64,000 nt of DNA from Chitinophagales bacterium (GCA_044227505.1 JBGAWP010000005.1:22947-86946); one strand, 5' to 3'; positions 1 through 27,572 are shown, counted from the first letter of the stretch. Numbers and translations: made by a program. Notes: generated by a model not told the origin, from the sequence alone.

Positions 1-2005
1 CAATAAAATAGTATTCCATATCGAAAGCATTTATCGAGCCTGAAGTGGTATCAATTACCTGTAAATAAAATATAAGTTTTGAATTTGAATTAAATATTGC
101 GTCAGGAATTTCAGAGATCAGGAAGGAAGCTGATGTAGAATTAATTGTGTCAGAGGTAAGATTATTTGTCCATATGTACAATAATTCTCCCGGTGGAGTA
201 ATAGCAACACCTGATGTATCTAATAATTCAAAGAACAGATCTATGGTATCAGTATAACTTAGAAAACAATCCATAGGATCTTTTTTAATAAATACTGAGT
301 ACGTTTTTGTATTGAACATGGAACTATCGGGTAGCCATTGTTGTAAATATTCAACCACCGGGTTATAATCCTCGTTATTGATAAGATTGTTCCATTCGTT
401 GGGATCAATTTCTCTGTTGATACCAATTTCATATAATTCTTCTTCGAAATAACTATTAACAGAATCGCAGATAGTTAGGCCTCCGCCATTAGACTGATAT
501 TTGATGTAATGAAAACGATCATTTCGAACGGAGTATTGAGGAAAACAAGCTCCTTCAGAATTAGATTCTTTTTTCACGCCCGACAAAATAGGCCGTTCCC
601 AATGTTGAGCAGGCTCTTGTAAAAGAGAATACAATGTCTTTCCATCGAGATATTGTGTGCCATCGAGAAATGTTGGATATTCTGAACCGATAAGATCGCA
701 AATAGTTGGAAAAAGGTCAAGCAAACTTACCGTAGTGTTACACATTTGTTTATTCGGCTCTCTTAGATCTGAAATAATGAATGGGACACGAATATCAGTT
801 TCCCAAAGAGTGCGTTTACCCCAATGTTTTTTTTCTCCCAAACCATATCCGTTATCACCCACTAAAATTATCACTGTATTATTATATATTTCAGGATATG
901 ATTCTAAAGAGTCTAGTAATCTTCCTATTTGTGCATCCAAATATTTTATTCCCGCAAGATAAGCCATAACACAATTTGCCCTTTTCGACCAGGAAAGTAA
1001 ATCAAGTGTCAATGAATCATCGAACGCGGCATCAATAATGGGCATAGGTGAAAGGTCTTCAGCCCACTCATTAAAATTATTGTCAGCTCCTTTCACCATT
1101 CCCTGTCCCATACTATCTGTAGGTAAATTATAATAATCTGAGAATGGAATTTTGGGTTGTGGCGGCATAATTATGCCGTTTTGTGGATACGAATTTGCGG
1201 GAAAATGAAACGGGATATCAAATGGTTCCTCATAAAAATCGGCAATATATTCCGGTTTAAAATATTTTTCCGGAATGTATAATGGTTTATGCGGTTTTTT
1301 TATTCCCAGGGCAATAAAAAAGGGATTGCCACATGTAATTGTATTATCCAGTGCGAATTGTTGAATAAATTTTGTTGCGGTATCCACAGCAACATAATCC
1401 ATCATGTGTTTTTCCATGGTATCGTTAATTGCTGACCATTCATTATTAAAAACACCTTGTTCCACTAAGCCGGGTGCAATAGTTGGAGAATCGTTGTAAA
1501 CAAATATTTTATTCCATGACAATTCTTTTTCACATGGTTCGGCTGTTAAAGAATCGTATTCTTGGAAATTTTCATAACAATGAAATATTTTATTTAAGCC
1601 AAATGTAAAATATCCGAGGCTGTCTTTTAAATAACCGGGAATAGTAAAATACTCGTCATTGTTTCCGGCAGCAGTAAAATTTTGTGAAAAATTGTTGCAC
1701 TTGTATCCTGCTGCGCTGTAAATATTTGTATAACTCGGATCTTTTCCTGTGAGAAAACTCGTTCTGGAAGGACAACACAATGGTGCGGAACAGAATGCAT
1801 TTGTAAATAATGTCCCATTGTCTGAAATTCTACTAATATTCGGAGTTGTTGATTCCTGACTTCCTCCCATTCCTTCAATATAATCGTTGAGATCATCCAC
1901 AACGATTAAAATTATATTGGGTTTTGTGTCGGCCTGAGCAAATCCATTTAGTCTTGTCAACACAAAGAACAATAAAAGGCTGATATGTGATATGTGTTTC
2001 CCCAT
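1..2005 (-). CDS. Sulfatase, T9SS-array paralog 1 (3' end runs off the window edge)
   Basis: Not in the ORF track. Manual translation from ATG 2005 gives MGKHISHISLLLFFVLTRLNGFAQADTKPNIILIVVDDLNDY...CSAPLCCPSRTSFLTGK (CxPxR motif), then ALGIKKPHK and GDNGYGLGEKKHWGK; collinear with its neighbours. Confidence 0.9.
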   Translation of the reverse strand, partial: MGKHISHISLLLFFVLTRLNGFAQADTKPNIILIVVDDLNDYIEGMGGSQESTTPNISRISDNGTLFTNAFCSAPLCCPSRTSFLTGKDPSYTNIYSAAGYKCNNFSQNFTAAGNNDEYFTIPGYLKDSLGYFTFGLNKIFHCYENFQEYDSLTAEPCEKELSWNKIFVYNDSPTIAPGLVEQGVFNNEWSAINDTMEKHMMDYVAVDTATKFIQQFALDNTITCGNPFFIALGIKKPHKPLYIPEKYFKPEYIADFYEEPFDIPFHFPANSYPQNGIIMPPQPKIPFSDYYNLPTDSMGQGMVKGADNNFNEWAEDLSPMPIIDAAFDDSLTLDLLSWSKRANCVMAYLAGIKYLDAQIGRLLDSLESYPEIYNNTVIILVGDNGYGLGEKKHWGKRTLWETDIRVPFIISDLREPNKQMCNTTVSLLDLFPTICDLIGSEYPTFLDGTQYLDGKTLYSLLQEPAQHWERPILSGVKKESNSEGACFPQYSVRNDRFHYIKYQSNGGGLTICDSVNSYFEEELYEIGINREIDPNEWNNLINNEDYNPVVEYLQQWLPDSSMFNTKTYSVFIKKDPMDCFLSYTDTIDLFFELLDTSGVAITPPGELLYIWTNNLTSDTINSTSASFLISEIPDAIFNSNSKLIFYLQVIDTTSGSINAFDMEYYFI

Positions 2006-2012
2006 TTGGATC

Positions 2013-4532
2013 TCAGATAATGATGAATGGTTTTGATGAAGTAAAGGTAGGAGATTTTAGTGTGATAAAATATAACCCCTGCGGTAAATTAGACAGGTCG
2101 ATCGCATGAATCAGCAAACCGTTTTGATGCAGAATAAATTGATTTAAAAGTTTTCCCGCCACATCTGTAATTAAGATCTCTCCCTCTTGCACTAATTCTT
2201 TTGTGGCCACATTTATTAATCCATAGGAAGGATCAGGAAATATTAAAAGGTTTTCTTCTGCGGCATAGTTAAATGATACTATTTCAACTTCACGGCTCAA
2301 TTCTATGATACAAGTATCATAATTTCCAAATGAAACATAGCAGGTTATTGTAAAGATTCCATATTCGTTATAGATATGTTCACCGGGATATTGGCCATAA
2401 AAGTAATTACCATCTCCAAAATCCCACCATATAGAATCATATTCTCCTTCAACTGATACGTTGTAAACTGATACGGAATTAGATTGGTAAGTAGTATTTA
2501 CGTCAAAGGAAATTTCGGGCAATTCCTGATCAAATAAATATGCATAAATAAGATCAAATCCTACAATTACATGGGTATTTGTATCTAACATATGCACATA
2601 AAAAATTACTCTTTTTGAAGTATTAAAAACTTGAATATCATTGAACGCAAAATAAGTTTCTGTTGAAAATATAGTATCATCTGTGATATTATTGGTCCAA
2701 TAATAAAGATATTCTTCGGGTGGTGAAATTTTGAGACCCGCTGTATCATAAATTTCAAAAGAAAGAAAAATGGAATCCTCAAGAATAAGCTGGCAACTTG
2801 TTTGGTCGAAATGAGGATCAAGATTAAATGTTGTTTTAGTATATAATGGATGACCAGGAATCCATTGTGATAAATATTCAACAACTGGAATAAAATCAGG
2901 ATTGCCTATTAGATTATTCCATTCATTGGGATCGGTTTCACGAAAAGTTCCTATTTCATACAGTTCTTCTAATAAGACAGAATTTAATGAGTCACAAGTT
3001 AAGTTTCCCTGCACATTGTTAGAATGATATTGTATATAATGAAACCGTTCGTTGCGAACTGAATATTGTTCATTACAGGAAACTTGTTTCCCATCTTCTG
3101 CCATATAAGTTGTAAGCACAGGTGATTCGTAGTGTAATGTGCTGTCATTTAAAATAGAAACGAGGCTTTTACCTTCAAGATATTTGGAGCTATCCGGAAA
3201 AAGCGGATATGCATTTAATGTTAGATCGCATATGGTTGGAAAAAGATCCAGTAAACTTACATTAATTGTGCAGGTTTTTTGAATTGGATTTCGCATGTCA
3301 ATTATTATAAATGGAATTCGAATATCGGTTTCCCAAAGGGCATTTTTTTTCCAGTGTTTTTTTTCATCTAACGCGAATCCATGATCACTGGATATAATAA
3401 TCACCGAATTGTTTAAAAGTTCAGGGTGCGTATTAAGTGCATCCCAGAATCTTCCCAGTTGTTCATCAACAAATTTTACTGCAGCAAGATAGGCCATGGT
3501 TGCATTTGCCAATTTAGATTTCATGAGTACGTTGGCTGATTGTTCAGTGTCTAAAGTATCGCTGATGGAAAGTATTAAACTGATACTATCGGCCCAAGTT
3601 TCAAAATCATTATGCACTGCCACATTTGAAAGGCTTTTGCCAACAAAATTTAAGCTGTCGTAATCGGAATAGGGTATTACCGGTTGAGGAGGAAGCACAA
3701 CGCCATTATATGGAAAAGTTTCCTTCGGATCGTTATAAGGAATTTGATACGGAGTTTGAAAAAAATCGGAAATGTAAAAAGGTAGAAAATATTGTTCAGG
3801 AATAAATAATTCTAAATGTGGTTTGTGATAACCCAGTGCAAGAAAAAAAGGTTTATCGCAAAAATCGGAAGGATTAGTTGCATAATCGTTTAGAAATGTT
3901 GCAGCTTTATCTGTGATCGTAAAGTCCTGCATATCGGTTGTAAGAGAGTCGTCGATCTGCGCCCATTCGAATTTACCTACATCCTCATCCAAGGATTCAC
4001 CAACATTAATGATACCTCCATTATTTCCAGTATATATATCTTCATTCCATGATAGTGTTTTTGCGCAATTATCTAAAGTAATATCATCATAATCATTAAA
4101 ATTTTGGTCAGCATGAAAAATTTTGTTAAAGGTGATCGTATAATATCCGCCATTATCTTTTAAATATTCGGGTAAAGTAATTAAATATTTTTCCGGAGGG
4201 AAGTTAGATCTGAAATCGAATTCATTAAATTCTTCATTGTTATAAACACCAGTGTAGGTTGGATTTTTGCCTAATAACAAACTTGTTCTGGAAGGCGCAC
4301 ATACAGGGGCGGAACAATAAGCATTTAAAAAAGTGGTTCCAAGAGAGGAAATAGCATTTAAATTTGGAGTTTCAACTTGTGGGTGCCCCCCGAAAGGCTC
4401 AACCCAGTCGTTAAGATCATCAAACATAATAAAAATGATATTCGGTTTTTCTGCAGTTTGTGCAAAAGATATTTTAGGGAACAAAAAGGTTCCAAACAGC
4501 AAAAACAAAAATGGATCAAGTTGTTTTCTCAT
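2013..4532 (-). CDS. Sulfatase + PKD + T9SS type-A sorting domain (paralog 2)
   Basis: DDLND, CAPSR, KPH and SDHG motifs; WDFGDG PKD motif; C-terminal IFPDPS...GLYFI. Start moved from 4610 to ATG 4532, which gives a signal peptide ending FAQ. Confidence 0.9.
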   Translation of the reverse strand: MRKQLDPFLFLLFGTFLFPKISFAQTAEKPNIIFIMFDDLNDWVEPFGGHPQVETPNLNAISSLGTTFLNAYCSAPVCAPSRTSLLLGKNPTYTGVYNNEEFNEFDFRSNFPPEKYLITLPEYLKDNGGYYTITFNKIFHADQNFNDYDDITLDNCAKTLSWNEDIYTGNNGGIINVGESLDEDVGKFEWAQIDDSLTTDMQDFTITDKAATFLNDYATNPSDFCDKPFFLALGYHKPHLELFIPEQYFLPFYISDFFQTPYQIPYNDPKETFPYNGVVLPPQPVIPYSDYDSLNFVGKSLSNVAVHNDFETWADSISLILSISDTLDTEQSANVLMKSKLANATMAYLAAVKFVDEQLGRFWDALNTHPELLNNSVIIISSDHGFALDEKKHWKKNALWETDIRIPFIIIDMRNPIQKTCTINVSLLDLFPTICDLTLNAYPLFPDSSKYLEGKSLVSILNDSTLHYESPVLTTYMAEDGKQVSCNEQYSVRNERFHYIQYHSNNVQGNLTCDSLNSVLLEELYEIGTFRETDPNEWNNLIGNPDFIPVVEYLSQWIPGHPLYTKTTFNLDPHFDQTSCQLILEDSIFLSFEIYDTAGLKISPPEEYLYYWTNNITDDTIFSTETYFAFNDIQVFNTSKRVIFYVHMLDTNTHVIVGFDLIYAYLFDQELPEISFDVNTTYQSNSVSVYNVSVEGEYDSIWWDFGDGNYFYGQYPGEHIYNEYGIFTITCYVSFGNYDTCIIELSREVEIVSFNYAAEENLLIFPDPSYGLINVATKELVQEGEILITDVAGKLLNQFILHQNGLLIHAIDLSNLPQGLYFITLKSPTFTSSKPFIII

Positions 4533-5075
4533 TCCAAAAATGGGAAATTTAAAATATGCAAATTGTTGGTTTGAACAAATCAGTCCGCACGATACTTTAG
4601 TGTTTACCATTTAACCTGGAATCTGCAATAAATTAAATGAATTTTTCAAAAATTGCGTTTAACGCATTATTAAAGGTAAATTTACTTAAATTTAACAAAT
4701 GTGAAGTGTTTTTCGGGTGAAATCAATAAATAACTACATGAATTGCACACTTGAGTTAGTGAAGGGTTATTGGTGAACCTGGAAAAACTTGAAATAAAAG
4801 CACTTTATATTAAAAAATTTCTTAATGTAATACTTCAAAGGGCAAAACCTTAATTTCCTGTTTGTGATTATTTGCACAAATTATTGACCTACCGGGAACG
4901 GCCTCAAATCAATAGAAAAATTTAAATAATTGATCACTGAAGATTTAAATACAGTTTGGCAAAGACATTCATATCTTTACATGTAATTATGGAGCATAGG
5001 GAAAGAAAAAGAATAATAAAATGTACAGTGTGTTTTTCAAATTATTTATAACTAAAGATGATATATAAAATTTAT

Positions 5076-7598
5076 TTATCTTACAATTTCCAACAATTTA
5101 TTTCCGGTAAATTCACCTGAATTTACAACAATAATATAATTGCCCGGAATTAATTTCTGTGTATTGATCTGAATGGACATCTGAGGAGATAAATATTTTT
5201 GTTCAAACACCTCTTTTCCTAAAACATCAATTATTTTAACTGATAATTCGGTTGTCGGTTTGTCTAATACAATATTTAAAATATCATCAACAGGATTTGG
5301 GAATACACTAAAATTCAAAGCTACAATTCCTTTCCTGGTAATCGTGATATTTTTTGCCTTACTTTTCAGGCATCCATTTCCGTACTCAATAAAATTGGTA
5401 ATGGTATAGGGTCCGGGGGCAGTATAAAAATGAGTATCCGGAATAAATTCCTCAGAGGTAATGCCATCGCCGAAAGTCCAGTAGGTATTCGTGTAACTGC
5501 CAGTAATGCTGTATGAAACAATATCGGCGCTGTTAAATACATCATCGGTTACTATATTAAAAGATGATACGGGTTTATTTGCACCATTTATGAATATTTC
5601 ATGTGTATTAAAAGCCACAAGTTCTCCTGATAATAAATCGGTAACTTCAAGATAAAATCTGATCTTGTCATTTGCTGCAAACTCAGCAGGAAGAATTGTG
5701 GCGGTGTTAAAACTGTAGGTTTTTCCAATAAATACAGCTGCAGTTAAATTATTGGTCCATTTAAACTGATAATTTGATAAAGCCGCACCTGTTATTAAAA
5801 CGCCTTCATCATTATATAAATTGACTTGAAGTTTAAAGGAAGTGTGATCATTTAATAAGCAAGGAAGCGTTTTGGTTACAATTTTGGCGGAATAAACTTT
5901 CTGCAAATACAACAGGTTATCCGGTAAAAAAAGTCTCAGATAATTAAGTACAGGAGTATAATCTTCATCATTAATTAAATTGTTCCATTCATATGGATCA
6001 ACCTTTCTGTCAATACCAATTTCATATAATTCTTCCTCAAAATAACTGCTTGGTTCATCGCATATCAGTTCGCCTCCTCCATTGGATTGATAGCGAATGT
6101 AATGAAACCGTTCGTTGCGAACAGAATATTGGGGGAAACAATGTAATTCCTCCACATCCCGTTGTTTTTCCGAACTAAGCACCGGCCTTTCCCATATTGC
6201 CAAAGGATTATTAATTAAAGGAAGAAGGCTTTCTCCATCTAAATAATCAGAGCCGTCGATAAATTGCGGGTATTCAATTTCAACAAGATCGCAGATCGTT
6301 GGAAAAAGATCTAATAATCCTACGGTTCTGGTGCAAACTTTATTTACCGGTTCTCTGAAATCGGCAATGATGAGTGAAGTTCTTACATCGGTATCCCAAA
6401 GTGCATATTTTTCCCAATGTCTTTTTTGACCAAGTGAATACCCATTGTCTCCCATAAAAATAATAATGGAATTGTTTAATATCTCGGGATGAGCGCTAAG
6501 TGTTTCAAATAATCTTCCTACCTGTGCATCAACAAAATTTACTGCTGCCAGATAGGCCATAACTGCATTTGCTCTTTTACTCCAGGTCAAAATATCTATG
6601 CGTTCTTCTTCCGTAAGATCCGGATCAATAACAGGATAGGGAGAAAGGTCTTCCAAAACCCATTCTACAAAGGAAGTGTCTTTTGCTTCCACCATTTCAC
6701 GTCCTAATCCACCCAAAGGCAAACTATCAAGATCGGAAAAAGGAATTTCAGGTTGTGGAGGCATTATGACACCATTTGCCGGAAAAGCATTTGCAGGAAA
6801 ATTATAGGGAATATTAAACGGATCCGCACTAAAATCATCGATATAAGCGTCAAGAAAATATTTCTCAGGTAAAAATTGTGTTTTATGCGGTTTGTTTATT
6901 CCCAGAGCAAGAAAAAATGGTTTATTGCAGATAACACTTTCATCAATTGCTACCTGATTTATAAAAGAAATAGCGCTGTCAACCGCGATATAATCATCCA
7001 GATATGGCTCTAAGGTGTCGTTCAATTTACCAAAATTATAACCATCAACTCCTTCATCAATATCTGCAATAATGGGAGCAAGAAAATCTTCATCTTCATA
7101 ATAATAATATCTGTTCCACGCTTTAGTTTTTTCGCAGGCATCTTCCGTGTCTTCATCATATTCAACAAGGTTGACAGGGCAATGAAATATTTTATTTAAA
7201 CTATAGGTAAAATATCCTCCGGTGTTTTTTAAATAGCCCGGCAATGTATAATATTCCTCATTTCCTTTTGCAGGCGTAAAATTTGATTGAAAATCAAAAC
7301 ATTTCAATTTGTCGTTTGAATAAACCTGGGTATAGTGGAGGTCTTTGCCGGTTAAAAAGCTGGTGCGTGAAGGTCCACACAGAGGGCAGGAAACATAAGC
7401 ATTTGTGAATAGAATACCATTATTTGCAATTTCTGTGATATTTGGAGTTTCTATATCCGGATTGCTGTTCAGCAATTGGATGTAATTATTCAGGTCGTCA
7501 GAAACGATCAGAATGATATTTGGTTTTTCGGCGCCCACTTGTGCTTTTGCACTGAGAACAAATAGGAGCAATATCAGGTTACTGATTGTGCATTTCAT
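5076..7598 (-). CDS. Sulfatase + PKD + T9SS sorting domain (paralog 3)
   Basis: Signal peptide, CGPSR, KPH, GDNG, WTFGDG, VFPNP...PGNYII. Confidence 0.92.
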   Translation of the reverse strand: MKCTISNLILLLFVLSAKAQVGAEKPNIILIVSDDLNNYIQLLNSNPDIETPNITEIANNGILFTNAYVSCPLCGPSRTSFLTGKDLHYTQVYSNDKLKCFDFQSNFTPAKGNEEYYTLPGYLKNTGGYFTYSLNKIFHCPVNLVEYDEDTEDACEKTKAWNRYYYYEDEDFLAPIIADIDEGVDGYNFGKLNDTLEPYLDDYIAVDSAISFINQVAIDESVICNKPFFLALGINKPHKTQFLPEKYFLDAYIDDFSADPFNIPYNFPANAFPANGVIMPPQPEIPFSDLDSLPLGGLGREMVEAKDTSFVEWVLEDLSPYPVIDPDLTEEERIDILTWSKRANAVMAYLAAVNFVDAQVGRLFETLSAHPEILNNSIIIFMGDNGYSLGQKRHWEKYALWDTDVRTSLIIADFREPVNKVCTRTVGLLDLFPTICDLVEIEYPQFIDGSDYLDGESLLPLINNPLAIWERPVLSSEKQRDVEELHCFPQYSVRNERFHYIRYQSNGGGELICDEPSSYFEEELYEIGIDRKVDPYEWNNLINDEDYTPVLNYLRLFLPDNLLYLQKVYSAKIVTKTLPCLLNDHTSFKLQVNLYNDEGVLITGAALSNYQFKWTNNLTAAVFIGKTYSFNTATILPAEFAANDKIRFYLEVTDLLSGELVAFNTHEIFINGANKPVSSFNIVTDDVFNSADIVSYSITGSYTNTYWTFGDGITSEEFIPDTHFYTAPGPYTITNFIEYGNGCLKSKAKNITITRKGIVALNFSVFPNPVDDILNIVLDKPTTELSVKIIDVLGKEVFEQKYLSPQMSIQINTQKLIPGNYIIVVNSGEFTGNKLLEIVR

Positions 7599-7626
7599 AA
7601 CTCGGATTTAATATGTTCATTTGTTT

Positions 7627-10149
7627 TTAATTCACAATTTCGAACGTTTTATTTCCTGAATATTTGCCTGCATTAATTTTTACAATATAAGTTCCAGAAG
7701 ACAAATTCGATGTATTTATCCGGATAACATCGTCGTATTCTGAAAATGATCTGGTTATTACTTCTTCGCCTAATATATTTACGATCTGTAAAGTTCCTTC
7801 CATAAAATTTTCATCTAATTCAATGGTGACTACTTCTGATGCGGGATTGGGGTAAAGGGAAAAATTCATATTGATTTCTCCTTCCCGCGTAATAGTAATA
7901 TTTTTCGCCTTGCTTTTCAGACATCCATTTCCATACTCAATATAATTTCTGATTGTATAAGGACCCGGAGCTGCATAAAAATGTGTGTCAGGTATATATT
8001 CCTCCGAAGTAGTTCCATCACCGAAGGTCCAGTAGGTATTTGTATAGCTTCCAATAATATTATAGGACACAATATCTGCGCTATTTAAAACAGGATCGGT
8101 AACAACACTGAATGTGGATGATGGCGTGTTTGCACTATTAATAGAAATTGTTTTTGTATTAAATGCCACCATCTGTCCTGAAGTAAGATCTGTTACCTCC
8201 AGATAAAAAATTATTTTATTGTTTGCGGCAAAAACCGCGGCAGGAATTGTTGCTGTATTAAAATTATAATTTCTTCCGTAAAAAATTGCTGCAGTTAAAT
8301 TATTGGTCCATTTAAATTGATAGTTGGATAGGGCGCCCCCGGTTATTGCAACGCCCATATCGGAATATAAAAAGGAAGAAATTTTTACAGTTGTGCTATT
8401 ATTTAAAAAACAAGGTAAAGTTTTTGTGGAAGTTTGTACCGTAAATGCTTTTTGTAAATACATGGAACCACCAGGCATAAATTCTTCCAGATAATCGATA
8501 ACCGGTGCATAATTCGGATCTGCCGCCAAATTATTCCATTCATTTGGATCGGTTTCCCGGTCAACGCCAATTTCATATAGTTCTTCTTCGTAATATACAC
8601 CACCCAAATCACAAACGTTTATTGCAAGATCGCCGTTGTTGTTTTTTTGATATCGTATGTAATGGTATTTTTCATTGCGTACTGAATAATGCGGGAAGCA
8701 ACCTCCTATACCCGTTGTTCTTTTTGTGGTGGATAAGGAAGGATTTTCGATAAATAAATTTGGGTTGTCGAGCAAAGGAACTATACTATGTCCATCGAGG
8801 TAATCACTTCCGTCTGCAAAAGTGGGATACGCAACATCAGCGAGGTCGCATATGGTGGGAAAAAGATCTAAAAGAGATACATTTCTTGTGCTTACCTGAT
8901 TTCCTGGTCTTGATGGATCTACAATAATAAATGGAACACGCAGATCTGTTTCCCATAACGACCACTTTGTCCAGTGTCTCTTTTCCCCCAATGAATAACC
9001 ATTATCACCAACCAAAACGATGATCGTATTTTCCAGTAATTCGGGAAAGGCATTAAGTGTATCGAGTACTTTCCCTATCATCGCATCGATATATTGCACT
9101 GCAGCAACGTAAGTAGCGTCTTCATTACAAGCAGCGGTTTGTTTTAATATTTCTATTCTCTCCTCATCCGTTAAGCCGGGGTCAATTTCGGGTAAAAAAG
9201 GAAGATCGTTTGTAAAATCAATGAGCTCCTGATATCCTTCACCAAAATCAGCTAATTTTTGTCCTACTCCAAGATCGGGAAGCTGATAATAATCATTATA
9301 TATAGGTTCGGGTTGTGGTGGCATTACGTGGCCATTATAAGGAAATGCGTTTGCCGGAGAATTATACGGAGCAACAAAAGGTTCCTCGTAAACGTCATGC
9401 AAATAATAAGGCTGATAATATTTTTGAGGAATATATCTATCGGAATGAGGCCTATTATATCCTAAGGCTAAAAAGAAGGGTCTGTCGCAGGTATTATAAG
9501 ATCCATCAGCATATTGACTAATAAATCGCATAGCGCTATCGGTTAGGATATAATCCTGCAATAAGGGTTCAAGCGAATCGGGGATCATTCCCCAGTTAAA
9601 ATTCGGAGCAAATGAATAATCATCCAAAAGATCCATTAAATCAAGTGTTTCATCGAAGTGTTTCATTTTATTCCATGACAAACCTTTTTCACAAAAATCA
9701 GGTGTGGTTTTATCGTAATCGTTGGATGCGGCATTGTGGAATATTTTTTCTAAGGCGAACGTATAATAACCGCCGGAGTCTTTTAATATTTCAGGTAATG
9801 TAAAAACTTCTGCATTCCCCTCCGCAGCTGTAAAATTGGTTCGAAATTTACCCAAATAGTCTTCATTATTGAATACTTTGGTATAGGCAACATCCTTGCC
9901 CGATAGGAAACTTGTTCTGGAAGGTGCACAACCGGGTGAATTTACATAGCCGTTTAAAAAGGTAGTCCCGTTAGCGGCAATTGCATTAATATTCGGAGTC
10001 TCCACCTGAGGATGGCCGCTGTAACTTTCAATATAATCGTTGAGATCGTCCACCACAATAAAAATAAAATTGGGTTTAACGGGAACAACTTGTGCTGAAA
10101 GTTGAACAAGGGAAACAATAAAAAAAAGGAGTGAAATTCGAATTTTCAT
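7627..10149 (-). CDS. Sulfatase + PKD + T9SS sorting domain (paralog 4)
   Basis: CAPSR, RPH, GDNG, WTFGDG, LYPNPA...SGTYIV. ATG 10149 preferred over TTG 10170. Confidence 0.92.
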   Translation of the reverse strand: MKIRISLLFFIVSLVQLSAQVVPVKPNFIFIVVDDLNDYIESYSGHPQVETPNINAIAANGTTFLNGYVNSPGCAPSRTSFLSGKDVAYTKVFNNEDYLGKFRTNFTAAEGNAEVFTLPEILKDSGGYYTFALEKIFHNAASNDYDKTTPDFCEKGLSWNKMKHFDETLDLMDLLDDYSFAPNFNWGMIPDSLEPLLQDYILTDSAMRFISQYADGSYNTCDRPFFLALGYNRPHSDRYIPQKYYQPYYLHDVYEEPFVAPYNSPANAFPYNGHVMPPQPEPIYNDYYQLPDLGVGQKLADFGEGYQELIDFTNDLPFLPEIDPGLTDEERIEILKQTAACNEDATYVAAVQYIDAMIGKVLDTLNAFPELLENTIIVLVGDNGYSLGEKRHWTKWSLWETDLRVPFIIVDPSRPGNQVSTRNVSLLDLFPTICDLADVAYPTFADGSDYLDGHSIVPLLDNPNLFIENPSLSTTKRTTGIGGCFPHYSVRNEKYHYIRYQKNNNGDLAINVCDLGGVYYEEELYEIGVDRETDPNEWNNLAADPNYAPVIDYLEEFMPGGSMYLQKAFTVQTSTKTLPCFLNNSTTVKISSFLYSDMGVAITGGALSNYQFKWTNNLTAAIFYGRNYNFNTATIPAAVFAANNKIIFYLEVTDLTSGQMVAFNTKTISINSANTPSSTFSVVTDPVLNSADIVSYNIIGSYTNTYWTFGDGTTSEEYIPDTHFYAAPGPYTIRNYIEYGNGCLKSKAKNITITREGEINMNFSLYPNPASEVVTIELDENFMEGTLQIVNILGEEVITRSFSEYDDVIRINTSNLSSGTYIVKINAGKYSGNKTFEIVN

Positions 10150-10181
10150 TTGGCTTTTATTAAACTTCAAAAGTGATAGGG

Positions 10182-12689
10182 TTAAATAATTTCAATTATT
10201 TTACTTGCAGAAGTTGTTGCTGTATTCACTTTCAGGATATAACTTCCTGCAGGTATTTTTTCAATGTCCAAATATATCATTTTTTCTGAAGGATAGGTAT
10301 CTGAACTGAAAATTGTTTGACCTAACATGTTAATTATTTGAATTTGAGCCTGGTTTTCCTTATTCTGTAAGACTATCGTTAATCTTTCAGATGCAGGATT
10401 TGGATATATCTCCAAGCCGGGAATAACCTGAGATTGTTTTAAAATTTCAATGGTCTGGTCCACATGCATTTCGCAGCCATTTCCGTATTCGATATAGTTT
10501 TTGATAGTATATATGCTTGGAATGGGAAAAAAATGTGTGGCGGGCCAATAATCCTCCGAACTTGTGCCATCGCCAAATTCCCAGTAGCTATTTGTATACG
10601 TTCCAAGAATTGTATAGTCAATAATATCAACACTGGTTTGGAGGTAGTTTGAATGGAGTCCAAAGTCAACCGTTGGAGTATTCAGGTTATTTATATATAT
10701 AATTTTGTTATTGAAACCCATTATTGAACCTGTTGCTGTTTCGGTTACTTCCAGATTAAATACAATTTCGCTTTGAAGGTCAAAAAGTGTGGGTAAAATT
10801 GTTGCCATATCAAAATTAAGTACCTTGCCAAAATAGGCATCATCGTTATAACTATTAGTCCATTTAAAAGTATAAGGATCGAGTTCTGCTCCTGCCATTA
10901 AAAGGCCCTGTTCATTATAAATGATGGGAGTTAATTTTAAATTTCCATTATTCGGTAAATAACAGGGCAGGGTTTGATTGTGAATTTTAATTGTAAAGGC
11001 AGATTGCAAATATTTAGAACTATCGGGAAGCCATTGTTGTAAGTAATGAATAACTGATTTGTAATCTTCATTATTTATCAAATTGTTCCATTCATTGGGA
11101 TCTCCTTCGCGATTTTTCCCTATTTTATAAAGTTCCTCTTCCACTGTGGAAAGTTCATAATTACAATCAGCACCATCGTCTTCATTATTAGACCTGTGTC
11201 TGATATAGTGAAACTTATTATTGCGTACAGAATATTGAGGAAAACAAGATGACTCTTCACCGCTTTCCCGTTTGTAGGTGCTGAGTACCGGTTTTTCAAT
11301 ATTGAGTTCCGGTTGTGATAAAAGGGGAGATAGCGAATTGCCGTCCAAATAATTTTCTCCATCAGGAAAAACCGGTTCGTTAATTTGAGCGAGATCGCAG
11401 ATGGTTGGAAACAGATCGAGTAAACTTATAGTACTGCTGCAAAACTGCGATGACATATTTCTATTATCTGTAATTATTACAGGAACACGCAGATCCGTTT
11501 CCCATAAAGCTCTCTTAGCCCAATGTTTTTTTTCACCCAATGAATAACCATGATCACTACTGATTATTATTACGGTATTATAATAAAGAGCAGGATTTTC
11601 TTTTAATTTTTCTAAAATTCTCCCAACCTGTGCATCAATAAACTGGATGGATGCAATATAGGCCATCACAGCATTTGCGCGTTTTGATTCCGTAAGTATT
11701 AATATTTTTTCTTCCTCCGAAAGTGCTTCTTCCATTAACGGTAAAGGATCAATGGATTCACAATTACTTATAAAGGCGTTGTGGATATAGGTGGTTGCTG
11801 AACTTTGTCCCAATGGTCCTAAATTATCATAATCGTTCCATACAATTTTTGGTTGGGGAGGCATTACAATTCCATTATAAGGAAATGCATTATAGGGATT
11901 GTTGTAAGGTTTGTTAAATGGCTCTTCGTAAATATTATCCTGATAAAATTCCGGATAATAATTTTCTGTAACGTACATCGGTAAATGCGGAAGATGATAT
12001 CCTAATGAAAGAAATAATGGGCGGTTGCAAAACAGATCCGGATGAGCAATATAATCATCAATTGTTTGAATTACACTATCTGTTGCAATGTAATCTTCCA
12101 AGGAGCTTTCAAAACTGCTATCCAGCTTCGCCCATTTAAATTGATCTATGTCTTCATCACTTTCTTCGGCAGCCGCATTTATTCCGGCACCCTGTTCGAC
12201 AGTGATGAATTTATTCCAGGATTTTGTTTTGGAGCATACATCGGGGGTTTCTGTATCAAATTCGTTTGAAGATGCATCGCAATGAAAAATTTTATCAAAT
12301 CCCGCAGTAAAATATCCGGCACTGTCTTTCAAATATTGAGGTAAGGTAATAATATAATTTCCCGGTATGAAACTTGCGCGATAATCAGCACAATTAATAT
12401 CCTGATTATTTATTAGGCCGGTGTATGAGGCATCTTTACCGGTAAAAATACTCGCGCGGGAAGCAGCACATACAGGTGAAGTGGCAAATGCATTCAAAAA
12501 CACAGTGCCGCTATCTGCAATACTTTTTATGTTAGGCGTTTTTACCTGAGGATGTCCATCATAGGGTTCAATGTAATCGTTGAGATCGTCAATGATGATA
12601 TAAATAATATTGGGTTTCGCGAGCTCAACCTGAGCTTGTAAATTTATCACCGCTCCAAGCAATAATAAAAATAAAAATGTGTTTTTCAT
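10182..12689 (-). CDS. Sulfatase + PKD + T9SS sorting domain (paralog 5, CxAxR variant)
   Basis: CAASR instead of CxPxR; SDHG; WEFGDG; IYPNPA...AGSYIL. Confidence 0.9.
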   Translation of the reverse strand: MKNTFLFLLLLGAVINLQAQVELAKPNIIYIIIDDLNDYIEPYDGHPQVKTPNIKSIADSGTVFLNAFATSPVCAASRASIFTGKDASYTGLINNQDINCADYRASFIPGNYIITLPQYLKDSAGYFTAGFDKIFHCDASSNEFDTETPDVCSKTKSWNKFITVEQGAGINAAAEESDEDIDQFKWAKLDSSFESSLEDYIATDSVIQTIDDYIAHPDLFCNRPLFLSLGYHLPHLPMYVTENYYPEFYQDNIYEEPFNKPYNNPYNAFPYNGIVMPPQPKIVWNDYDNLGPLGQSSATTYIHNAFISNCESIDPLPLMEEALSEEEKILILTESKRANAVMAYIASIQFIDAQVGRILEKLKENPALYYNTVIIISSDHGYSLGEKKHWAKRALWETDLRVPVIITDNRNMSSQFCSSTISLLDLFPTICDLAQINEPVFPDGENYLDGNSLSPLLSQPELNIEKPVLSTYKRESGEESSCFPQYSVRNNKFHYIRHRSNNEDDGADCNYELSTVEEELYKIGKNREGDPNEWNNLINNEDYKSVIHYLQQWLPDSSKYLQSAFTIKIHNQTLPCYLPNNGNLKLTPIIYNEQGLLMAGAELDPYTFKWTNSYNDDAYFGKVLNFDMATILPTLFDLQSEIVFNLEVTETATGSIMGFNNKIIYINNLNTPTVDFGLHSNYLQTSVDIIDYTILGTYTNSYWEFGDGTSSEDYWPATHFFPIPSIYTIKNYIEYGNGCEMHVDQTIEILKQSQVIPGLEIYPNPASERLTIVLQNKENQAQIQIINMLGQTIFSSDTYPSEKMIYLDIEKIPAGSYILKVNTATTSASKIIEII

Positions 12690-13033
12690 GCTGTGTGTGT
12701 TTGAACATTTATATTTTAAATTATTTAAATAAGGAATAAATTAAATTATTTTTTGTGATTCAAATTGAACCTAAATTAACTATAGCGATGCGTGTAACTT
12801 TAGATCATCTGACACAGGGCAAATAGAAAAAATAGAGTCAATTTTGGGTAATAGAACATGGTATTGGATAAACTAAAATTACTATTATCCCTATCACATA
12901 CAAGCAGAAACATGCGAATTGACCCATTTTAATTGTGAAATACCTCTTTGAGTTAGTAAAGGGAGTTCATAACCCAATTTTATGGTTAGAATTTGGGTAT
13001 TTTCTCGGCAGAACTACCGAAAGCAGAAGTTTG

Positions 13034-13074
13034 ATTTAATGAAATCAGCCGGTATTTGGCTGATTTCATTAAAT
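13034..13074 (-). terminator. Hairpin terminator after sulfatase paralog 6
   Basis: 17-bp perfect stem ATTTAATGAAATCAGCC/GGCTGATTTCATTAAAT with a 7-nt loop, just past the stop at 13081. Confidence 0.7.
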
Positions 13075-13080
13075 ATAAAA

Positions 13081-15609
13081 TTATCTTACGATTTCGAATT
13101 TGGCGTTGGTGAATACATTTTCTGAACGTATTTCAAGAATATAAGAACCAGCGGGAATAGTTTGAATATTAAGTTGTATCAATTTATTTCTGGAACTTTT
13201 TGTTTCGCTATAAACTACCTGGCCAAGGATGTTTAAAATTTGTATCTGCGCATCCTCAAGTTCATTCTGTAAGGTAATATTTAATTGGGTATTTGCAGGA
13301 TTTGGGTATAAAGCACATGTATACTCCGACACGCCTTCCCGCAATAAATTGGCTGTGCGGTGATAATTTTTTAAACAGCCATTACCATATTGAATATAAT
13401 TTGTAACCGTATAAATTCCGGGTGCTGTGTAATAATGTGTATCAGGTAAATATTCTTCTGAGGTATTTCCATCTCCAAAATCCCAATACGTATTTGTATA
13501 ACTGCCTGTTAAGGAATAGGTATTAATTGAGGTTGTTAATCCGGGAACGTCGTTGGTGAGCGTAAACCCGCCAAAAGGAGTATTTGCGGTATTAATAAAA
13601 TATGTTTTTGTATTAAATGCAACAAGATCGCCTGTAGCTGTTTCTGTTACTTCAAGATAAAATAAAATTCTGTCTTTACTTGAATAAACTGCCGGCGAAA
13701 CTGTAAGCATATTAAAGTTATAATTTTTACCAAAATATTCTGCACCGGTTAAATTATTTGTCCATTTAAAGGTATAACCGGCACCGGTTAATAATTCTCC
13801 TTCCGGGTTATAAAGTGTAGCCTGTAATTTTATTTTGCTGTTATTTTTTAAGAAGCAAGGTACAGTGCCGGCATTGGCTATATTTACAATAAAGGCTTTT
13901 TGCATATATAAAGCACTGTCAGGTAGAAACTGATGCATGTAATTAACTACAGGTGCATATGCGGGATCATTTATTAAATTATTCCATTCGTAAGGATCTG
14001 TTTCGCGATCAACACCCATGTCGTATAATTCTTCCTCCATAAAACTTGCTGTTTCATCACATGTTAAAAGGGGAGGATTATTATTGGTCTGATATTTAAT
14101 ATATTTAAATCTATTATTTCGGATGCTATACTGCGGAAAACAGGAAGCTTCGTTTACCATTCCTACAGGATTTTTAGTTTTAACTGTAGACAGTGATGGT
14201 TTTTCCCACATTAATTCAGGGTTGTTCATTAACGGCAAAAAACTGTGTCCGTCAAGATATCTTCCGCCTGCAGCAAATGTTGGTTCGGGAATATCGAGCA
14301 GGTCTAAAAGAGTTGGAAAAATATCTAAAGTACTTACACTTTTACCACATGTTTGTGCCACGGGATTACGCATGTCTGCAAATACCAGTGGTACTCTTAC
14401 GTCAGGTTCCCACATGGAAAATTTACCCCAATGTCTTTTTGTTCCAAGGGAAAAGCCATGGTCCGATGTTAAAATAATTATGCAGTTATTGTAAATTTCC
14501 GGATGTGATTGAAGTGCGGTTAAAAATCTTCCCAATTCATAATCCAAAAAATTAATACCTGCTATATATGCTAAAATTGCATTTGCTCTTTCGGTTTCAT
14601 TAATTATTTCAATTCTTTCTGCATCACTTATTCCGGCTTCAATTTCGGGAAGTGTAATTAAACTCTCTCCGTATTCATCAAAAAGTTCTGCTTCATTATC
14701 AGAGGCAAATAATTGTCCCATATATCCGAGTGAATCGTAATCAGCCCATTTTGGAACTGGTTGTGGTGGCATCAGGAGTCCGTTATAAGGAAAAGCATTA
14801 TAGGGTTCGTTATACGGTTTATTAAATGGTTCTGCGTAAATATCCTCTACATAATCCTCGTTGAAAAAACTTTCCGGAACGTAAAAATTCGCATGTGGTT
14901 TTTTAATTCCCAATCCAAGAAAAAATGGATTTCCACAGGTAACATCCGTGCCGAATGCAGCAAAGTCATCAATAAATTCAATTGCAGCATCCACACTTAC
15001 ATCATCTTCCATATAATCAATAAGTGTGTCGTCGAGACGCGCCCATTTTAATGTAAATATTCCTTCATTTACTGCGTCGCCAATCGGGTTGATAATATCA
15101 TCTTCTACATACACAAAAGCATTGTTCCAGGAAAGTTCTCTTAAACATGGATTCGGTGTTTCGTCGTCAAAATCGGAAAATGCTTCATAACAATGAAATA
15201 CTTTTCCGATAGTATAGGTATAATAATCAGCGTTGTCTTTTAAATATCCCGGCAAGGTATATACTTCCCCATTTCCATCGGCAACCTGAAAATTTTTTCT
15301 GAAATTGTAACAGGCATAACTTGTATTATCATAAACCTGAGTATATAAAACGTCTTTACCTGTAACAAGCGACGTTCTTGCCGGCGCACATTTTGGGGAA
15401 GCACAATTTGCATTTGTAAAAACAGTTCCATTTTGTACCAGGGTATTTAAATTAGGAGTAGAGGCCTGCGGAAAGTATTCAAAACCTTCCATCATGGTAT
15501 TCATATCATCCATGGTGATAAGAATGATGTATGGTTGTGCAGGGGTTTGTGCAAATGTCAGCGGGATTAATCCGGTTAACAACAAATAAAAAGTTAATTT
15601 TTTAAGCAT
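13081..15609 (-). CDS. Sulfatase + PKD + T9SS sorting domain (paralog 6)
   Basis: DDMN, CAPAR, KKPH, SDHG, WDFGDG, LYPNPA...AGSYIL. Confidence 0.92.
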   Translation of the reverse strand: MLKKLTFYLLLTGLIPLTFAQTPAQPYIILITMDDMNTMMEGFEYFPQASTPNLNTLVQNGTVFTNANCASPKCAPARTSLVTGKDVLYTQVYDNTSYACYNFRKNFQVADGNGEVYTLPGYLKDNADYYTYTIGKVFHCYEAFSDFDDETPNPCLRELSWNNAFVYVEDDIINPIGDAVNEGIFTLKWARLDDTLIDYMEDDVSVDAAIEFIDDFAAFGTDVTCGNPFFLGLGIKKPHANFYVPESFFNEDYVEDIYAEPFNKPYNEPYNAFPYNGLLMPPQPVPKWADYDSLGYMGQLFASDNEAELFDEYGESLITLPEIEAGISDAERIEIINETERANAILAYIAGINFLDYELGRFLTALQSHPEIYNNCIIILTSDHGFSLGTKRHWGKFSMWEPDVRVPLVFADMRNPVAQTCGKSVSTLDIFPTLLDLLDIPEPTFAAGGRYLDGHSFLPLMNNPELMWEKPSLSTVKTKNPVGMVNEASCFPQYSIRNNRFKYIKYQTNNNPPLLTCDETASFMEEELYDMGVDRETDPYEWNNLINDPAYAPVVNYMHQFLPDSALYMQKAFIVNIANAGTVPCFLKNNSKIKLQATLYNPEGELLTGAGYTFKWTNNLTGAEYFGKNYNFNMLTVSPAVYSSKDRILFYLEVTETATGDLVAFNTKTYFINTANTPFGGFTLTNDVPGLTTSINTYSLTGSYTNTYWDFGDGNTSEEYLPDTHYYTAPGIYTVTNYIQYGNGCLKNYHRTANLLREGVSEYTCALYPNPANTQLNITLQNELEDAQIQILNILGQVVYSETKSSRNKLIQLNIQTIPAGSYILEIRSENVFTNAKFEIVR

Positions 15610-15687: not shown

Positions 15688-16455
15688 ATGAAGATCATAA
15701 CCTATAATCTGAATGGCATTCGCGCTGCAATGAACCGGGGGTGGCTCGACTGGGTGCGGGAACATGCATTTGATATCATTTGTGTACAAGAATTAAAAGC
15801 AGAACCCGGACAGTTGGACGTTACACTTTTTGATCAACTGGGTTATCACCATTACTGGCATCCGGCAACAAAAAAAGGATACAGCGGTGTCGCCATTTTT
15901 TCAAAAATAAAACCGGACAATGTTGTGATAGGTTGTGGAAATAAGGATTATGATTTTGAAGGCAGGGTTATTCGTGCCGATTACGGAGATAAAAGTGTTT
16001 ACTCCATTTATTTTCCTTCCGGCACTACAGGTGATGTTCGGCAGGGAGTTAAATATCAATTCCTCGATTATATTTCCACGCATTTACAGGAGGTGCAGAA
16101 AAATAGAAAAAAATTAATTGTTTGTGGTGATTATAATATTGCACATACTCCTTTAGACATTCACGATCCAAAGGGAAATAAAAACAGCTCCGGATTTTTA
16201 CCCGAAGAACGCGCATGGATGGATACTTTTTATGGTTCGGGGTATATTGACAGCCTTCGTTTTTTTAATAAGGATCCACACCAATATACTTGGTGGAGTT
16301 ACAGAGCAAATGCAAGGGCAAATAATAAAGGATGGAGGATAGATTATATTGCTGTCACCGAAAATTTGGCGAAGGACCTTGTTGGTGCAAAGATCTATCC
16401 CGATGCCATGCACAGCGACCATTGTCCGCAGTTGTTGGAGATGAATTGGGAATGA
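15688..16455 (+). CDS. xth: Exodeoxyribonuclease III
   Basis: YNLNGIRA, QELK, GYSGVA, GDYNIAH, GWRIDY and SDHCP motifs. Confidence 0.95.
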   Translation: MKIITYNLNGIRAAMNRGWLDWVREHAFDIICVQELKAEPGQLDVTLFDQLGYHHYWHPATKKGYSGVAIFSKIKPDNVVIGCGNKDYDFEGRVIRADYGDKSVYSIYFPSGTTGDVRQGVKYQFLDYISTHLQEVQKNRKKLIVCGDYNIAHTPLDIHDPKGNKNSSGFLPEERAWMDTFYGSGYIDSLRFFNKDPHQYTWWSYRANARANNKGWRIDYIAVTENLAKDLVGAKIYPDAMHSDHCPQLLEMNWE

Positions 16456-16557: not shown

Positions 16558-17043
16558 TTATTTTTGCGGTTGAACACCAAATTTCTCCAGCTTCACCCCA
16601 ATACTTAAAATAAAAGGAAGCGGATTCATGCGCATATCCTGTTCAAGGGTTATGGTGTATTTTCCTTTTTGAGGAAGTAAAAAATTACTTTGAACAAGCA
16701 CCGAATTAAAACAAATACCGTCAACACAATCACCTGTCCATTCGCCGTTTGATTCAGATAAAATTACACTTACTTTATTTTTCTGAACGGTACTATCAGG
16801 AAAAACAGTGGTCATATTTAACCATAGATTATTATAGGGATATTCGTCAGTATGCCGAACATTGATATATAAGTTGTACGAAATATTTGTATCGAGAACA
16901 GAAACTTCAAAATTTTCTTGTTCTCCATAAAACCATCCTTCTTTTTCAAGCGAAATATTTTTATCGAAAACACGTGATTGCTCGCAAGCGGAAAATAATA
17001 TTGCGACAAACAATAAACAATATAGCTGGAAAAGTTTTTTCAA
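16558..17043 (-). CDS. gldH: Gliding motility lipoprotein GldH
   Basis: Lipobox FSAC; NVRHTDEYPYNNLWL, GEWTG and EQDMR motifs; typical position next to PSP1 and holB. Confidence 0.88.
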   Translation of the reverse strand: MKKLFQLYCLLFVAILFSACEQSRVFDKNISLEKEGWFYGEQENFEVSVLDTNISYNLYINVRHTDEYPYNNLWLNMTTVFPDSTVQKNKVSVILSESNGEWTGDCVDGICFNSVLVQSNFLLPQKGKYTITLEQDMRMNPLPFILSIGVKLEKFGVQPQK

Positions 17044-22869: not shown

Positions 22870-22998
22870 GAAAGGTTGAAGGGGTTGAAAACGTTTAATA
22901 CGGAGAAACTGAGGTTATCGCTTATAGGAGGGTCTCAGCAGAGTTGACAGCCAGCGCAACCAATTAATAAATTACCAAACTAAAAAATTACCAAATTG
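22870..22998. repeat. Repeat-armed spacer: G-rich 9-mers on the left, C/A-rich 8-mers on the right
   Basis: gaaaggttgaaggggttgaaaacgtt ... ccaattaa taaattac caaactaa aaaattac caaattg. Confidence 0.45.
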
Positions 22999-23871: not shown

Positions 23872-23877
23872 CGAACC

Positions 23878-26873: not shown

Positions 26874-26874
26874 T

Positions 26875-27570: not shown

Positions 27571-27572
27571 TT

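Follow-up and report, generated by a model that had tools for sequence, protein, structure and literature searches.

Tandem sulfatase genes with type IX sorting domains and an accessory PorP/SprF gene in an uncultured Chitinophagales bacterium

The sulfatase array and its closest described counterparts

Sulfatases are the gatekeepers of sulfated-glycan breakdown, and almost all characterized bacterial sulfatases are periplasmic enzymes within polysaccharide utilization loci (PULs). We analyzed a 64,000-nucleotide stretch of a Chitinophagales bacterium (GCA_044227505.1, JBGAWP010000005.1:22947-86946; G000:C99:22947-86946 in our numbering of genomes and contigs), which is called the window below and belongs to a 4.2-Mb genome of 143 contigs with an estimated completeness of 97.8%. 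One end of the window carries a tandem array of sulfatase genes whose products bear type IX secretion system (T9SS) sorting domains. Judged from their sequences, these genes probably form a lineage-specific, diversified battery of T9SS-exported formylglycine S1 sulfatases working outside the cell.

Three kinds of described systems come close to this locus. The subfamily S1_7 of SulfAtlas includes iduronate-2-sulfatase (IDS) and endo-4S-kappa-carrageenan sulfatase (PMC5066984), and the S1_7 enzymes of known structure, human IDS (5fql and 6ioz) and FA22070 of Formosa agariphila (6hhm), are like the window proteins in fold and catalytic residues. However, the identity is only about 20-21%, the window proteins add about 45-50 loop residues and three C-terminal domains, and the known S1_7 enzymes are lysosomal or PUL-encoded, unlike the window proteins. 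Export of an S1 formylglycine sulfatase by the T9SS has a published precedent in PbSulf1-GH195 of marine Polaribacter, whose S1 sulfatase carries a T9SS domain and attacks a sulfated polysaccharide outside the cell (PMC13063451). Whereas PbSulf1-GH195 is a single multimodular enzyme (S1_51 plus GH195) in a mannan-degradation pathway, the array consists of tandem stand-alone sulfatases, and the available text of that report mentions neither a PorP/SprF neighbor nor a neighboring gene for a formylglycine-generating enzyme (FGE). The third likeness is the cargo-shuttle layout, in which a gene for a cargo with a type B C-terminal sorting domain (CTD) is followed by a PorP/SprF-family gene (PMC12618676, PMC9143113). 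The pairs SprB-SprF of Flavobacterium johnsoniae and PG1035-PorP of Porphyromonas gingivalis share with the array the order of cargo gene and accessory PorP/SprF-family gene; in contrast to these type B systems, the cargo tails of the array are of type A. The catalytic domain is also alike in stand-alone sulfatases of other organisms (13 loci within L057-L100, 470-490 aa; examined open reading frames (ORFs) of 467-541 aa), which are too short for the Ig-like, PKD, and T9SS domains and have about half of a 96-residue loop region.

A full-text literature search found no description of such an array, nor one of any T9SS sulfatase family for Chitinophagales or Saprospiraceae; in their available text, PMC9296495 and PMC10792170 mention the T9SS and sulfatases, but separately. 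The S1 sulfatase, the PKD domain, the type A CTD, and FGE are each already known, and what is new is their arrangement, in which a tandem family is joined by an accessory PorP/SprF gene that is itself conserved and, within one genus, by a lipoprotein FGE encoded in the cluster.

An ORF scan indicated that positions 2-15609 of the window are filled by six co-oriented minus-strand ORFs. The contig runs on for 22.9 kb to the left of the window. There the ORF truncated at the window edge is whole, at 840 aa, with a seventh paralog after it, and this leftward extension yielded the complete S6, S7, and a PorP/SprF gene. An earlier note made from the window alone had counted at least six tandem sulfatase-PKD-T9SS paralogs, which holds for the six in the window but is too low for the array, in which seven tandem paralogs, S1 (on the side of the xth gene) to S7, are found. 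The array genes, all on the minus strand, are as follows.

Window 13081..15609, minus strand: S1, first gene of the array, 842 aa; PF00884 E 6.9e-34, PF18962 57.1 bits, TIGR04183 40.4 bits; active-site motif CAPAR.
Window 10182..12689, minus strand: S2, 835 aa; PF00884 E 6.1e-36, PF18962 53.5 bits, TIGR04183 42.1 bits; active-site motif C-A-A-S-R.
Window 7627..10170, minus strand: S3, ORF of 847 aa; PF00884 E 9.8e-44, PF18962 52.7 bits, TIGR04183 37.8 bits.
Window 5076..7598, minus strand: S4, 840 aa; PF00884 E 4.3e-31, PF18962 46.6 bits, TIGR04183 33 bits; active-site motif CGPSR.
Window 2013..4610, minus strand: S5, ORF of 865 aa; PF00884 E 2.3e-35, PF18962 35.5 bits, TIGR04183 27.6 bits; catalytic residues intact.
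Window 2..2005, minus strand: S6, N-terminal 668 aa (PF00884 E 1.3e-39); the whole gene, C99:22429-24951, encodes 840 aa with PF00884 and PF18962, and its last 99 residues score 37.9 bits with TIGR04183.
C99:19890-22427, minus strand, left of the window: S7, 845 aa; PF00884 E 9e-41, PF18962 38.9 bits, TIGR04183 35.7 bits.

The true start of S3 is likely the internal ATG at M8 (window 10149), giving 840 aa, the length that public gene calls also have; by inspection of the alignment, that of S5 is likely the internal ATG at M27 (window 4532), giving 839 aa. The intergenic gaps from S1 to S7 are 391, 11, 28, 465, 7, and 1 bp. Scans for sigma-70 promoters and terminators gave no usable operon boundaries in the array, with counts close to those of shuffled sequence (promoters, 83 vs 74.3 +/- 9.5; terminators, 13 vs 10.7 +/- 2.6), and the scan does not cover Bacteroidota promoters. 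Contig C51 has an eighth copy with this architecture, located beside tig-clpP-clpX, and its TIGR04183 score is 29.4 bits.

Domain architecture, active site, and evolution of the sulfatases

PF00884 matched all eight paralogs of the genome at 109-150 bits (cut-off 25), and the six of the window matched at E-values from 4e-31 to 1e-43 and also matched SGSH_C. The five complete window paralogs scored 35-57 bits with PF18962 and 27.6-42.1 bits with TIGR04183 (cut-off 23), above the curated cut-offs, so that the T9SS sorting domain is present in every whole protein of the window. The PKD matches to Pfam were weak (17-30 bits vs a cut-off of 27). In an AlphaFold2 model of S3 built from an alignment of 56 sequences (mean pLDDT 91.8), residues of about 30-571 form the sulfatase fold; a separate model of residues 572-768 (pLDDT 93.4) has two beta-sandwiches, of which residues 681-763 superpose on PKD1 of PrtV with Z 11.5 and a root-mean-square deviation of 2.0 over 79 residues. 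The model confirms the PKD fold despite the weak Pfam scores. Residues 572-680 form an Ig-like sandwich that matches only generic Ig, macroglobulin, and FN3 folds (Z 8-9.4); a known carbohydrate-binding module between sulfatase and PKD domains found no support, since these matches are no better than the background of the tool. The N-termini are hydrophobic and end in A-Q, as in Sec-type signals, by visual judgment of the alignment. The ORFs, the profile matches, and the model thus bear out five complete paralogs of about 840 aa with a putative signal peptide, a linker domain, a PKD domain, and a T9SS domain, as the earlier note had described them.

The catalytic set was kept in all 40 of the paralogs compared from 9 genomes: Asp-Asp, C-x-P/A-x-R, Lys...His, His, Asp-His/Asn, and Lys. 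The formylglycine motif reads C-x-P-x-R in 35 and C-A-A-S-R in the other 5, namely S2 with two orthologs and one further ortholog pair; the change from Pro to Ala in S2 is common to its orthologs in two other species. Seven cysteines, one of them the formylglycine precursor, are invariant over the 56 aligned sequences, in line with the conserved cysteines noted earlier, and the motifs DDLND, KIFH, KPH, HWxKxxLWE, and PYNxPxNAFPxNGxxMPPQP are all seen in the alignment. The Pro-rich insert that had been called long and shared is present (residues 257-352) but only partly specific to the clade: 42-51 of its 96 residues have counterparts in 12 of 13 distant stand-alone relatives, whose main deficits are the PYNxPxNAFPYNG segment and another stretch some 25 residues long. 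It is thus an elaboration of about 45-50 residues on a loop region also present in more distant relatives.

The best Foldseek matches of the S3 model were human IDS (6ioz and 5fql; E about 2e-24) and the ulvan sulfatase 6hhm (E-values ranging to 5e-24), the latter with a TM-score, normalized to the target, of 0.78. Choline sulfatases (S1_12), BT1918 (S1_46), and phosphonate monoester hydrolases followed close behind, with identities of 17-21% for all structural matches, and a sequence search of the PDB agreed with this ranking in placing IDS and 6hhm among the best. The two rank first at 20-21% identity, with the choline sulfatases and the S1_46 enzyme within one order of magnitude in E-value. 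The likeness to S1_7 suggested in the earlier note therefore stands insofar as the nearest solved structures are S1_7 enzymes, but an identity of about 20% and the almost equal scores of choline sulfatases and the S1_46 enzyme leave it short of membership in that subfamily. Among NCBIfam models, the best partial matches were arylsulfatase and choline-sulfatase models at about 120-155 bits, far under their cut-offs. Beyond the Chitinophagales clade, the catalytic domain has its closest relatives, with about 28-31% identity across residues 10-566, in Planctomycetota, Verrucomicrobiota, Cytophagales, and others. Close homologs in public databases are mostly named 'sulfatase-like hydrolase/transferase', from metagenome-assembled genomes of uncultured Chitinophagales or Bacteroidota, with a few labelled otherwise.

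The same structural comparison raises the question of whether these proteins could be promiscuous hydrolases of the alkaline phosphatase superfamily that act on extracellular phosphonate monoesters or phosphodiesters and are not primarily sulfatases. Formylglycine phosphonate monoester hydrolases (4uph, 4upk, 2vqr, and 2w8s) are among the structural neighbors, and weak matches to Phosphodiest (PF01663) are present. The phosphonate hydrolase structures, however, rank under those of the S1_7, choline-sulfatase, and S1_46 enzymes, and the Phosphodiest matches are short and much weaker than those to PF00884; the co-location of FGE and sulfatase genes described below is neutral in this respect, since FGE serves phosphonate hydrolases too. 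We consider such an activity very improbable as the primary one, and the proteins are treated as S1 sulfatases below.

A search of the whole genome with PF00884 gave 11 matches, comprising the seven genes of the array, the C51 copy, a sulfatase on contig C67, an LtaS-like transferase, and a phosphoglycerate mutase, and all nine true sulfatases carry a T9SS tail. The C67 protein is a ninth, unrelated sulfatase of 834 aa (locus L003:4133-6637, minus strand), whose tail consists of a MopE metal-binding motif, Ig_7, and a type A CTD. Sulfatase export by the T9SS would thus not be confined to the arrayed family in this organism.

To trace the family, S3 was used as the query (E <= 1e-30) against 24 genomes of the same GTDB family and 16 genomes representing 16 other families in the order. 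All 24 genomes of the same uncultured Chitinophagales family had 2-15 copies, mostly in tandem, and S3-type sulfatases were found in none of the 16 genomes of other families at this threshold. The slot is conserved in eight relatives, with holB-PSP1-gldH-xth on one side, PorP-nitroreductase on the other, and 1 to 8 sulfatase genes inside. The eight copies of our genome are 36-54% identical over their whole length, with conservation highest in the C-terminal catalytic half (mean 54%) and lowest in the sorting domain (24%). In a quick maximum-likelihood tree of 40 full-length copies (truncated pieces excluded, SH-aLRT support only, midpoint rooted), S7, next to the PorP gene, clustered with the copies that adjoin PorP in other species, as well as with copies belonging to other genera; orthologs of S5 and S6 occur within the genus, and S1-S4 fall into a 12-member clade (99% support) limited to three close species. 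S1 is 90% identical to its ortholog in genome G002. The paralogs are old, and their family evolves by birth and death while retaining long-lived members, which would be expected of copies with different functions. Broken array members are consistent with ongoing gene death in the family; one has an in-frame TAG (G002:C2:307854-310175), and another, at locus L020:6695-9239 of G023, is split into pieces of 688 and 192 aa. Relatives also have shorter copies (about 675-712 aa, some in tandem triplets) and longer ones (about 1060-1107 aa, genus g3), for example at G013:C211, G006:C41, G018:C4, and G022:C42.

Maturation, export, and possible substrates

PF03781 had five matches in the genome, of which one is GldK, one is GldJ, two are small, and one is a true FGE.

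C54:27784-28896 of G000 (locus L005:5782-6897), minus strand: FGE, 371 aa; PF03781 277 bits, E 5.8e-76 to the bacterial FGE structure 6s07, GGSFLC-x4-C motif.

The search for a maturase called for in the earlier note thus ended in one FGE and no anaerobic sulfatase-maturating enzyme (anSME). The latter was rejected as the maturase, as profile searches gave no match in this genome and none above the cut-off in 5 genomes of other genera. An ortholog of the C54 FGE (E <= 1e-50) was present in 16 of 16 genomes of the same genus and in one of eight genomes of other genera; a Pfam search of the eight added two genomes with an FGE gene, both of genus g5. In G020 (g5) the gene order is holB-PSP1-gldH-sulfatase-xth(-)-sulfatase-FGE-PorP, and the product of the embedded gene matches human FGE with E 5.6e-60, has the Cys pair, and carries a lipobox-like ...LLIASC. 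In G024 (g5) an FGE fragment directly follows the last sulfatase gene, at the contig end. The co-location of FGE in g5 is the best contextual evidence for formylglycine dependence and for a functional cluster. By inspection, the N-terminus of the C54 FGE (...LFNSC) is also lipoprotein-like, and the signals of both proteins suggest that formylglycine would be formed in the periplasm, not in the cytoplasm.

The secretion machinery is partly visible in the same genome: PorP-GldK-GldL-GldM-GldN lie together on C69, GldJ on C110, and GldH in the window (the search covered these components). At least 150 proteins matched TIGR04183 (150 were scored of 398 first-look candidates), and 31 matched the type B CTD model. 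SusD_RagB had 3 matches (on C85, C123, and C49), none of them on C99, so that no SusCD pair was found left of the window on the SusD side of the search. Among the other window ORFs scanned with Pfam, no match to SusC/D, glycoside hydrolase, or FGE families was found, in agreement with what had been noted for the window, and the flanking ORFs scanned (C99:1-10,887 lay outside the scan) gave no match to SusC/D. The statement that the array lies outside any PUL is accurate, with no SusD on the contig and no adjacent SusC/D, but it carries little weight because the genome has 3 SusD matches and at least 150 type A cargos. Rather than using PULs, the organism specializes in exoenzymes exported by the T9SS.

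We propose that the sulfatases would be exported by the Sec pathway, after which their active-site Cys would be converted to formylglycine in the periplasm by the single lipoprotein FGE. The folded enzymes would then cross the outer membrane via the T9SS, of which the gldKLMN core is present, and would either be set free or stay fixed to the surface, where the Ig-like and PKD domains would form a stalk. The paralogs may divide labor among different sulfate esters, which fits their age, since they are 36-54% identical and have orthologs across species and genera. Likely targets would be sulfated glycoconjugates of the sludge matrix or of sewage, and their desulfation could open them to other secreted hydrolases or transporters; feeding by exoenzymes rather than by SusC/D capture is suggested by a genome poor in PULs but rich in T9SS cargos. 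The sulfatases may also be served by the conserved PorP/SprF gene that follows the array. The extracellular desulfation battery of the earlier note accordingly gains from Cys-type S1 domains with intact catalytic residues, putative Sec signals, type A tails, and a position not beside SusC/D genes, whereas activity and export are in each case predictions from sequence.

Several observations weigh against this battery of secreted sulfatases. The identity to any characterized sulfatase is about 20%. The Ala in place of Pro in S2 and its orthologs may lower recognition by FGE. In 7 of the 8 genomes of other genera there was no ortholog of the C54 FGE at E <= 1e-50, and the g2 and g4 genomes (G017, G019, G021, and G023) had no classic FGE in the Pfam search and no anSME above the cut-off, yet they have 4-6 Cys-type copies; apart from GldK and GldJ, a single protein of about 270 aa carries the PF03781 domain in them. 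Maturation of the Cys-type copies in g2 and g4 is thus not explained by the known FGE or anSME. Finally, the substrate class is a guess, and classic glycosaminoglycan catabolism is unsupported because PL8 and GH88 are missing.

Seven studies, not counting the one that may be the source of the assembly, have metagenome runs from activated sludge, bioreactors, or related settings that contain near-identical DNA; no RNA run was among those listed. Sulfated glycoconjugates have been reported in the extracellular polymeric substances of sludge (PMC10483923). We tentatively favor sulfated glycoconjugates as the substrates, ahead of small sulfate esters. The genome, 97.8% complete, contains neither PL8 nor GH88, and Hepar_II_III_C had one match only; a glycosaminoglycan degrader was therefore not supported. 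These absences would also suit secreted sulfatases that act on the small sulfate esters of sewage (phenolic, steroid, bile-acid, or alkyl), where the gain would be sulfur or a carbon skeleton and not access to a polymer. The activated-sludge habitat and the arylsulfatase and choline-sulfatase models among the best NCBIfam partial matches point the same way, as do two genes of the PAPS-reductase family, with which freed sulfate could be assimilated. Sulfate, however, is rarely limiting in wastewater, and seven to fifteen diverged, stalked paralogs exceed the needs of sulfur supply. Moreover, the closest structures are carbohydrate sulfatases, and stalks of PKD and Ig-like domains resemble those commonly seen in enzymes acting on polymers or surfaces. 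We therefore regard small esters as an unlikely main target and return to sulfated glycoconjugates as the preferred, if provisional, substrates.

If the battery is as proposed, each genome in a whole uncultured Chitinophagales family that is common in activated sludge would encode 2-15 exported copies but scarcely any SusD, which suggests that desulfation in wastewater flocs can proceed by way of exoenzymes. Two side questions are raised, namely whether a PorP/SprF-type protein serves type A cargo and whether a lipoprotein FGE forms formylglycine in the periplasm. Substrate screening could also draw on the paralogs as a set of diverged and probably soluble sulfatases.

The PorP/SprF neighbor and the other genes of the window

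On the right of S1 lie xth on the opposite strand, gldH, PSP1, holB, further housekeeping genes, and a Bat/MoxR operon. On the left of S7, a PorP/SprF gene follows after 155 bp on the same strand, then an ORF of 302 aa, and then a nitroreductase gene on the opposite strand.

C99:18706-19734, minus strand: PorP/SprF gene, 342 aa; PF11751 138.8 bits, TIGR03519 170 bits.
C99:17701-18609, minus strand: lipoprotein-like ORF, 302 aa, following the PorP/SprF gene.
Window 15688-16455, plus strand: exonuclease III-like gene (xth), PF03372 E 2e-32; upstream boundary of the slot and not a part of the system.
Window 16558-17043, minus strand: gldH, GldH_lipo E 5e-34, with PSP1 and holB (DNA_pol3_delta2) next; boundary of the slot.

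The 302-aa ORF was dropped as a candidate part of the system, as it has no Pfam or NCBIfam match and is present in just 6 of 15 genomes of the same genus.

An ortholog of the PorP/SprF gene (78-97% identity within the genus) lies directly 3' of the last sulfatase gene in 14 of 15 genomes of the same genus. In the fifteenth, G003, the PorP ortholog and the array are on different contigs, with no adjacent sulfatase among the matches listed. In other genera, PorP stands beside a sulfatase gene in 4 of 5 genomes: G017 has a sulfatase on both sides of it, in G023 it is next to a broken copy, and in G020 the last sulfatase gene and PorP are separated by the FGE gene, the gaps being less than 60 bp. 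The best match to PorP in G018 (49%) does not adjoin a sulfatase. The C99 gene is an accessory copy, the core PorP being in the C69 operon with gldKLMN, and another PorP-like gene precedes gldJ on C110. Accessory PorP-like genes on C11 and C95 follow type B CTD matches after 24 and 75 bp, which is the published shuttle layout. The PorP sequence is far more conserved than the sulfatases, with 77% mean column identity across genera, and its orthologs have invariant cysteines, one of them four residues from the C-terminus.

These observations raise the possibility that the PorP/SprF-family protein is a dedicated carrier or anchor that keeps the type A sulfatases on the cell surface, in the way that SprF holds SprB. 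The nearly constant position after the last sulfatase, the accessory status of the gene, the type B cargo genes before the C11 and C95 copies, the order sulfatase-FGE-PorP in G020, and the conservation of PorP all favor it. In contrast, all 8 of the PorP-proximal sulfatase tails (last 99 residues) matched the type A model TIGR04183 at 33.5-43.9 bits, and none of the 8 matched the type B model TIGR04131 at E <= 1. Because type A CTDs are reported all to be recognized by PorV (available text of PMC12618676), a cargo-specific role for this PorP-like protein would be new. The unrelated xth is linked to the arrays as faithfully as PorP and lies inside them in G017, G020, and G024, so that synteny alone proves little, and G017, with sulfatases on both sides, and G018, without an adjoining one, do not follow the simple order. 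A predicted complex of PorP-like residues 20-342 (alignment of 8) and S7 residues 760-845 (alignment of 38) scored 0.00 in both runs, without controls, and speaks neither for nor against binding. A dedicated carrier therefore seems doubtful to us, and slightly more doubtful still is its extension, in which a recruited PorP/SprF-family carrier of type A enzymes and the lipoprotein FGE would together make a self-contained module to mature, export, and tether the sulfatases, for surface display and possibly with the PorP tail cysteines leading to the GldK track. If a PorP carrier did exist, it would break the current rule that assigns type A cargo to PorV and PorP/SprF-like proteins to type B cargo.

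The tails of the PorP/SprF proteins themselves have a common feature. Five PorP/SprF paralogs of the genome share Cys-Pro in their last 3-6 residues (IDCPRF, MPCPRY, IPCPKF, LKCPAYE, and LDCPSVL).

C99:18709-19734, C95:12898-13860, C55:88338-89354, C11:6685-7659, and C110:32847-33749: the PorP/SprF paralogs with a Cys-Pro tail.

SprF bonds to GldK via cysteines in its C-tail (available text of PMC12635249), and the PorP-like protein of this locus also has conserved cysteines in its tail, although the Cys-x-Cys of SprF is spaced differently. By analogy, the Cys-Pro tail may be a counterpart of the GldK-bonding cysteines and is a lead only.

The remainder of the window contains housekeeping genes and three further T9SS cargos.

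Window 37117-39186, minus strand: T9SS cargo of 689 aa with a lysyl-oxidase-like domain (PF01186, E 9e-7), Ig_7, and a type A sorting domain.
Window 44308-46020: T9SS cargo of 570 aa with no recognizable head.
Window 46435-49461, plus strand: T9SS cargo of 1008 aa with lamin-tail, CHB_HEX_C-like, and CotH kinase-like domains and a type A sorting domain.
Window 21868-30199, plus strand: complete Bat/MoxR-type operon, with a MoxR AAA_3 ATPase, DUF58, an unassigned ORF, two BatA/vWA proteins, TPR, BatD, and TPR-SH3.

The lysyl-oxidase-like domain of the 689-aa cargo is an unusual catalytic domain in a bacterial secreted protein.

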